Shown here: one piece after another, positions 30,187 through 30,817 of the stretch
Position numbering within the stretch: the stretch's first letter is position 1
Layout: each line of letters opens with the position of its first letter
NCBI GenBank assembly: GCA_964016885.1
Contig: OZ024757.1
Location: 11,222,001 to 11,286,000 of the forward strand
Direction: 5' to 3'
DNA length: 64,000 bases
Origin: Eledone cirrhosa
Taxonomy: Eukaryota
Notes under the pieces: generated by a model
Databases searched by the model: none
What the model saw: only the letters and a program-made list of their open reading frames with translations
Told to the model about the DNA's origin: nothing
Made by a program: the position numbers and the translations under genes

Positions 30187-30276
<90 letters not shown>

Positions 30277-30398
30277 AATATAGACATAGAATATTCGAAA
30301 ATATTCTGTATATTTATAATAAACATTTTGAAGACCTAATCGCTATAGAATAGAATACGTCACGTATTACAATTAGATTCTCGATAAAAGCAAGGGAA

Positions 30399-30441
30399 GT
30401 AATCTACGCGTTTCATTCTTATTAGAAATCTTCAGGACTAC
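30399..30441 (-). ncRNA. Minimal type I hammerhead ribozyme motif (inverted copy)
   Basis: Reverse complement of 30566-30608. Confidence 0.85.
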
Positions 30442-30565
30442 ATATCCAGTGCTTTTATCGAGAATGACACAGCTAGAGACTTATAGAATACTTAGCTGTG
30501 TATGAACTGGTTTAAGTATTCTATAAGTCTCTAGCTGTGTCATTCTCGATAAAAGCACTGGATAT

Positions 30566-30608
30566 GTAGTCCTGAAGATTTCTAATAAGAATGAAACGCG
30601 TAGATTAC
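30566..30608 (+). ncRNA. Minimal type I hammerhead ribozyme motif
   Basis: GTAGTC-CTGAAGA-tTTCT aat AGAAt-GAAAC-GC-GTA-GATTAC with ACGCGT palindrome. Confidence 0.85.
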
Positions 30609-30761
30609 TTCCCTTGCTTTTATCGAGAATCTAATTGTAATACGTGACGTATTCTATTCTATAGCGATTAGGTCTTCAAAATGTTTATTATAAACATACA
30701 GAATATTTTCGAATATTCTATGTCTATATTCACATATATATCGCTATTTCAGAGCATTTAT

Positions 30762-30817
<56 letters not shown>

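Follow-up and report, generated by a model that had tools for sequence, protein, structure and literature searches.

Anatomy of the foldback

A foldback occupies positions 30266-30767 of the window, the whole 64,000-nt stretch of DNA analysed here. Its arms (30266-30494 and 30513-30741) are separated by an 18-nt spacer and are identical at 228 of 229 nt, and direct comparison of the arms places the sole mismatch (1/229) at 30312. The right copy continues past the arm end, to 30767. The left copy stops at an internal AT tract, the right one extends 26 nt farther, and both abut (TA)n; the flanks, which were examined for a target-site duplication of more than 4 bp, are (TA)n on both sides. A sequence-only reading of the region had described a foldback with two hammerhead ribozymes (HHRs) at 30270-30765, and the 228/229-nt arms, with a type I hammerhead motif in each, bear out this description. 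Both HHRs are present, but they lie on opposite strands and face outwards, and a transcript therefore contains a single sense HHR. The features of the locus are as follows.

30266-30767, no strand: entire insertion, two partial retrozyme units in a head-to-head join
30266-30512, minus strand: left copy, 247 nt, stopping at an internal AT tract and including the 18-nt centre (30495-30512)
30513-30767, plus strand: right copy, 255 nt out of a 310-nt unit, matched by 340-nt contigs of the public runs X4 and X11
30742-30767, plus strand: one-sided tail, 26 nt, not in the left arm
30239-30272, no strand: left (TA)n tract, presumed target
30766-30811, no strand: right (TA)n tract, presumed target
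30566-30608, plus strand: type I hammerhead motif with C3-G8 core, U10.1-U11.1, loop 2 AATA and palindromic stem III
30399-30441, minus strand: mirror hammerhead motif, core from 30435, predicted cleavage at 30405
30542-30630, plus strand: extended helix I, made up of 3 distal bp and a basal stem of 16 bp (30542-30557 with 30615-30630) that covaries with module B
30661-30755, plus strand: 3' region, best conserved against module B (73 identities in 96 columns)

The 18-nt centre probably belongs to the left copy, judging by its resemblance to the spacer of a second repeat in the window, module B. The 3' region may contain the signals for protein recognition and for the start of reverse transcription. 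A 333-nt repeat, whose copies are 90% alike and in opposite orientation (29790-30122 and 57159-57491), has a microsatellite end just left of the foldback.

The hammerhead motif

In the plus-strand motif, stem I is formed by 30566-30571 with 30603-30608. The core CTGAAGA occupies 30572-30578, stem II 30579-30592, the GAA 30593-30595 and stem III (ACGCGT) 30596-30601, and cleavage is predicted after 30602. The core consensus was taken from the list in PMC3088659. The motif has each consensus element of a type I hammerhead (C3 U4 G5 A6 N7 G8 A9, G12 A13 A14, A15.1-U16.1, H17 and a 3-8 pair). Helices I, II and III surround the core, with the ends open in helix I. Helix I has 6 bp and the extension, helix II has 4 bp and a U-U mismatch, and helix III is palindromic and can be closed only as a dimer. 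Both families, that of the foldback and that of module B, have AATA as loop 2, and helix I is followed by an internal loop. The core had been called canonical, which holds at 3-8 (C3-G8) and fails at 10.1-11.1, where the foldback copy has U-U.

A search against Rfam gave no match at gathering threshold in the whole window. Hammerhead scores below gathering (52 bits) were 17 bits for the foldback (HH9, E 0.29) and 25.4 bits for module B. Stem II is weak in the single-arm ensemble (pair II.2, P 0.15). A hairpin cannot be closed by stem III, which self-pairs between two copies at -7.5 kcal/mol, compared with -19.5 for the left module B motif. A dimeric mode of cleavage through a paired stem III is described in PMC4209133 and PMC6765202. 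An in-cis dimer of the two foldback hammerheads is ruled out by their opposite strands.

Other motifs of this kind occur in the window. A third hammerhead motif, hammerhead C (6942-6995 and 11727-11780, plus strand), has a CTGAAGA core, U10.1-U11.1, a helix I of 6 bp and a stem III that is long and non-palindromic; homology of its copy at 6948 to the foldback was not significant (44/1000 shuffles). The fourth motif lies on the minus strand in 63400-63545 (core from 63445) and has a U3-A8 core and a palindromic stem III, within a short inverted repeat whose plus side is a degenerate hammerhead of the type found in Penelope-like elements (PLEs). A CTGAAGA motif at 36520-36575 (minus strand), 1.3 kb downstream of a PLE remnant, has a long predicted stem II and a weak helix I. 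Outside these motifs, the window contains a satellite of about 23 copies with units of ~101-135 nt (16097-18727) and C2H2 zinc-finger ORFs.

Homology to module B

Module B is present in four copies:

1795-2430, no strand: copy 1, an inverted truncated copy (1796-2019, minus strand) and ~1.3 units of a 319-nt repeat (2020-2430, plus strand); U3-A8
4379-5017, no strand: copy 2, duplicate
8942-9577, no strand: copy 3, duplicate
13714-14349, no strand: copy 4, identical with copy 3 at 641/641

The copies are mutually 98-100% identical and lie within larger duplications, and they are therefore counted as one lineage, that is, one insertion later duplicated. Window positions 1-16100 form a very AT-rich tandem segmental duplication of ~4.77 kb that bears the module B copies and hammerhead C; a real duplication and an assembly expansion are both possible.

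The earlier claim that the foldback shares ordered motifs with module B holds for 4/4 of the motifs named, and GGTCTTCAAAATG has 14 matches against 0.05 expected. Alignments between the two score 108-117 against shuffle means of 37-40 (z 12-14), and none of 1000 dinucleotide shuffles reaches the score, which places the homology beyond what AT-rich controls produce. The portion downstream of the hammerhead is significant by itself. The upstream stretch alone (30505-30562) does not go beyond shuffles, 106/1000 of which reach its score against module B. The stated contrast of cores, CTGAAGA (C3-G8) in the foldback versus TTGATAA (U3-A8) in module B, whose palindrome contains AAGGCCTT, is confirmed. 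In the plus-strand copies of module B, two pairs of stem I are broken and the palindrome of stem III carries one change.

The layout of module B is also that of the foldback. Its arms are ~94% alike, and its end points are similar to the foldback's two, with the sides swapped. The plus-strand segment is longer than one unit, with a head-to-tail junction at 319 nt, which points to a multimeric or circular template. Within the foldback's lineage, module B stands as a sister family with a U3-A8 core.

Two viral and 34 metagenome loci that share an 18-base motif were rejected as chance matches, since all 36 score 27-73.5 against the foldback arm and true module B homology scores 108-117 with a similar query. 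A longer hammerhead pattern found no locus in viral sequences.

Covariation and selection

The families were compared in a structure-blind MAFFT alignment, in which the hammerheads fall in register from an upstream anchor through the core. Stems I and II had been said to differ in sequence and still pair, and the alignment agrees: 10 of 29 named pairs, including C3-G8/U3-A8, are changed on both sides yet pairing. Pairing is found in 88.8% of cells, compared with 33-50% when the partners are slid, which leaves 0-4 double-changed pairs. The 0/500 shuffles obtained for covariation is not a probability, since there are just two lineages. A second count, of 35 pairs, compared the foldback with module B copy 2 after a 1-nt gap had been shifted by hand, which adds four basal pairs. 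The foldback forms 32 of these and module B copy 2 keeps 29 of the 32 (11 unchanged, 4 changed on one side, 14 on two sides and 3 broken). Independent mutation at the observed rate keeps a mean of 16.7 pairs and reached 29 in none of 100,000 simulations.

Paired columns diverged at 36/64 sites, more than the 3' region (73 identities in 96 columns). Transitions account for 24/36 substitutions in paired columns (p 4e-5 against one third), an excess that supports common descent. Catalytic core positions are constant between the families, save the compensated 3-8 pair. We infer from these patterns that the hammerhead domain is kept by structure and the 3' region by sequence. Covariation within one element lineage is supported by the alignments, on the basis of two lineages, which are too few for a test of the R-scape type. 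Since pairs are kept and the core is unchanged apart from the compensated 3-8 pair, selection has likely acted on the hammerhead fold in the element lineage.

The fate of the foldback itself appears to be different. A read-through transcript is predicted to fold into a 229-bp hairpin at -385 kcal/mol, in which pair I.1 has a probability of ~1e-47; for one arm on its own the value is 0.78. Such a transcript is predicted to be catalytically blocked, its hammerhead buried in the hairpin, and the locus to be a dead end. The loss of pair I.1 and the opposite strands of the motifs together indicate that the covariation records family history, not function here. The sequence-only reading, which took covariation to point to selection for ribozyme function, is thus partly supported: common descent and covariation hold, and the selection is no evidence that the foldback locus works. 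The target of selection is likely the selfish replicating repeat in the RNA phase of the family, rather than the foldback locus.

The repeat unit in public sequencing runs

Four of 24 listed public runs (X1, X4, X11 and X21) were examined for the foldback sequence. A closed 310-nt unit was found in two of the four, X4 and X11, each of which has one 340-nt contig with a 30-nt terminal overlap. The two contigs are opened at different points, match 30513-30767 with 2 (X4) and 3 (X11) differences, and return to their start after 55 further letters. A closed contig stands equally for a tandem DNA array or a circle. X1 contains 592 contigs with a summed depth of up to ~600,000, which is not a copy number. 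Loose ends of X1 contigs past 30767 match the module B spacer, with 4 matches in the window against 0 expected. Five variants at 3% or more are listed for X1, at N7 (80% by depth), at 10.1 (17%, giving an A-U pair), in loop 2 (68% and 21%) and at 30724, and the conserved core bases are free of them.

The end points of the foldback recur in the family: 10 X1 contigs exit at 30741 into (AT)n, and one X4 contig spans 30738-30770 without a difference. The foldback junction itself was not found in X1, X4 or X11, where depth is 0 at 30495-30504, no strand-change joint occurs and the centre is uncovered on the plus strand. X21, a raw Hi-C run, gave no matching read in 1,938 million letters, which is informative only if the organism is present in the run. 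X4 records 11 and 12 are contigs of one further sub-family, which is nearer to module B than to the foldback and distinct from both.

The units of 310 and 319 nt are arranged head to tail, fall within the 150-450 bp range of non-LTR retrozymes and contain one type I hammerhead each. They are non-coding, with GC of 0.30 (foldback unit) and 0.34 (module B unit), below 50%. No ORF was found in the unit, where the longest stop-free frame is 45 codons (273 nt examined). Unit size, GC and the absence of an ORF fit the non-LTR retrozymes described in PMC7229834. Judged by sequence, the foldback repeat and module B are both non-LTR retrozyme-type repeats.

Distribution across organism labels

At least half of 25 sampled words of the unit occur in 20 runs, which carry 18 organism labels and belong to 17 studies. 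None of these runs is recorded as RNA, a point that has no bearing on expression. In two runs with other labels the unit occurs singly and closed on itself, and is 99% identical to the copy in the window. Runs X23 and X24, of the same label and study as the holder X12, have almost none of the words, although this does not prove absence. X4 also carries relatives of module B and an element-(AT) junction, and its content looks as if a whole repeat complement had been carried along. Trace DNA or related hosts best explain the distribution across labels, and a single clean unit would be expected from trace DNA of a very high-copy repeat. That the 310-nt unit passes from one species to another, as a circular RNA that is infectious or horizontally transmitted, is a long shot, and no case of horizontal transfer of a retrozyme was found among the literature titles listed. 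If true, an animal retrozyme would have been caught in the course of recent spread across species, as a link between genomic retrozymes and viroid-like agents. The cross-label distribution is the only result that would surprise specialists, if contamination, diet and related hosts were excluded.

Proposed origin and cycle

The foldback consists of two partial copies of a 310-nt hammerhead unit in a head-to-head join, and it likely arose by insertion of a non-coding retrozyme that a PLE mobilised in trans. The signature of PLE insertion is found at the foldback, namely an inverted truncated copy, a one-sided 26-nt tail and (TA)n at both ends. PLE copies described in PMC8557442 are inverted and truncated, with a one-sided tail of 30-40 bp and (TA)n targets. 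In PMC11167929, both target strands are cut and extended by a PLE protein, whose two start sites delimit the tail, and hammerhead cleavage is dispensable for insertion in vitro. The authors of bioRxiv 10.64898/2026.07.22.740005 argue that retrozymes originate from PLEs, and propose a derivation from pLTRs.

The cycle proposed here builds on the observed anatomy, homology, covariation, unit length and end points. Head-to-tail arrays elsewhere in the genome would be transcribed as multimers. Two hammerheads, paired as a dimer through their palindromic stem III, would then self-cleave to unit length, and the unit-length monomers may circularise. A PLE partner would supply an RT-GIY-YIG protein that cuts both (TA)n strands, and reverse transcription would be primed from each (TA)n end, with two start sites on the RNA 26 nt apart. 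Integration from the two primers would join two 5'-truncated cDNAs mid-way, giving an inverted repeat with a one-sided tail. Both arms carry alleles at 30576 and 30586 that are minority alleles in X1, which makes it likely that the arms come from one source. Snap-back copying of a single cDNA is ruled out, as 26 nt of unit sequence in the right arm have no counterpart in the left arm. A literature search on twin priming gave no PLE-specific model among the titles listed.

The unit has no ORF with RT and GIY-YIG domains, and tblastn with PLE proteins matches only 21601-22750 and 37958-39493 in the window. Neither the foldback nor module B has a blastn match to the PLE remnants of the window at E 1e-3. 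One of these remnants, at 20470-23893, contains GIY-YIG and is a 3.4-kb foldback of a 5'-truncated PLE end with ~98% arm identity; with (TA)n at its left end and a one-sided extension at its right, its layout is like that of 30266-30767. The other, at 37916-39493 (minus strand), is frameshifted and contains RT and GIY-YIG, and may be Hydra-clade-like by its motifs. A PLE-type hammerhead-like motif at 40700-40780 (plus strand) is followed by a tail that resembles the tails of the foldback and module B (1/2000 and 0/2000 shuffles). The tail likeness near 40751, which is short, may reflect a shared RT start signal. A related 12-base motif has 8 occurrences against 1.04 expected.

Alternative explanations

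An unlikely alternative, although the best of those considered, is that extreme 5' truncation of an autonomous PLE left nothing but its pseudo-LTR, with no separately replicating retrozyme. In PMC4209133, dual hammerheads 100-700 bp apart on opposite strands are attributed to truncated PLEs. The insertion signature of the foldback is identical to that of a PLE, and downstream of the PLE-type hammerhead near 40709 lies a similar tail (1/2000 and 0/2000 shuffles). However, the unit closes on itself at 310 nt without an ORF, module B has a head-to-tail junction at 319 nt, and stem II is 4-5 bp long as opposed to 7-8 bp in PLE minimal hammerheads. The pseudo-LTR and retrozyme readings are also related, given that retrozymes are proposed to come from pLTRs.

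The near-identity of the arms, the second near-perfect foldback at 20470-23893 and the missing junction in X1, X4 and X11 would also suit an assembly or library artefact, in which a read turned back on itself over a single retrozyme copy. Such an artefact is very unlikely. One base differs between the arms, and the two ends stop at distinct family end points that recur. Module B has the same layout with arms only ~94% alike, and inverted copies are a known feature of PLEs.

Still less credible is co-option of the locus by the host as a long hairpin RNA, either as a source of small RNAs or as an editing substrate that silences the family. The read-through transcript at -385 kcal/mol and the arm identity of 228/229 agree with this idea. 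However, the locus shows no sign of being transcribed or conserved, recent insertion would account for the high arm identity, and matches to miRNA families in Rfam are all below gathering, as for any long hairpin.

Least probable of all is a DNA transposon of MITE type, bounded by long terminal inverted repeats and inserted at TA: the element is short and non-coding, with inverted repeats and a TA-rich target, and a hAT transposase remnant lies at 59204-61928, but the ends are asymmetric by 26 nt instead of symmetric, the family is head-to-tail with strand-change joints absent in the runs examined, and the hammerhead fold covaries. The hAT-type transposase of the window (57785-62270) comprises frameshifted ORFs at 59204-61351 and 61209-61928 between apparent terminal inverted repeats.

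Comparison with known systems

The mobilised retrozyme proposed here shares features with several known systems. Metazoan non-LTR retrozymes, as described in PMC7229834 and bioRxiv 10.64898/2026.07.22.740005, are 150-450 bp long, with GC <50%, one type I hammerhead, no ORF and a short palindromic stem III, as here. At the base of helix II, the axolotl HHR_Amex2 likewise shows a U-U mismatch (PMC7229834), and of nine predicted Xenopus retrozyme dimers only one cleaved in vitro (bioRxiv 10.64898/2026.07.22.740005). In contrast to these retrozymes, the repeat described here forms a head-to-head pair with a PLE tail, occurs as sister families that differ at 3-8, and is known from DNA alone. No report of cephalopod retrozymes was found among the papers listed in the literature searched. 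The repeat likely extends the known host range of non-LTR retrozymes to a cephalopod-type host. The host is tentatively placed among the octopods, by one Octopus match in a protein search, by one Argonauta match in a second (one of two named among at least 120 listed, the other being hydrozoan) and by the C2H2 zinc-finger ORFs of the window.

The hammerheads of PLEs (PMC4209133) share with the foldback a palindromic stem III, the requirement for a dimer and dual motifs on opposite strands 100-700 bp apart. A U3-A8 versus C3-G8 difference within one PLE lineage is reported there for Schistosoma Cercyon, with ~1,300 matches. In the minimal PLE hammerheads of the same source, helix II spans 7-8 bp and helix I 4-5 bp, an additional base precedes 10.1, and 10.1-11.1 is a G10.1-C11.1 pair. 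The foldback hammerhead departs from this type, with a helix II of 4-5 bp, a helix I of 6 bp, a long basal stem and no ORF. Among natural hammerhead variants, both U3-A8 covariation and a U10.1-U11.1 mismatch are described as compatible with activity in PMC3088659; the changes here are the same in kind and occur within two families of one repeat lineage. A literature search for C3U/G8A returned 0 papers. The U3-A8 swap and the U10.1-U11.1 mismatch have been published before, as have opposite-strand pairs and inverted copies. The two sister families, a natural pair in which 3-8 is swapped and 10-14 changes are compensatory, are useful for cleavage tests.

The architecture of PLE insertions (PMC8557442, PMC11167929) is common to the foldback in its inverted 5'-truncated copy, its tail at one end and its (TA)n target. 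The tail is 26 nt in the foldback versus 30-40 bp in PLEs (PMC8557442). The foldback ends where the element has AT-rich tracts, whereas the start site of PAc is non-homologous to the target (PMC11167929). Unlike that of PLEs, the cargo is non-coding. The presence of a retrozyme-sized unit and the full PLE insertion signature in one locus supports the proposed mobilisation of retrozymes by PLEs.
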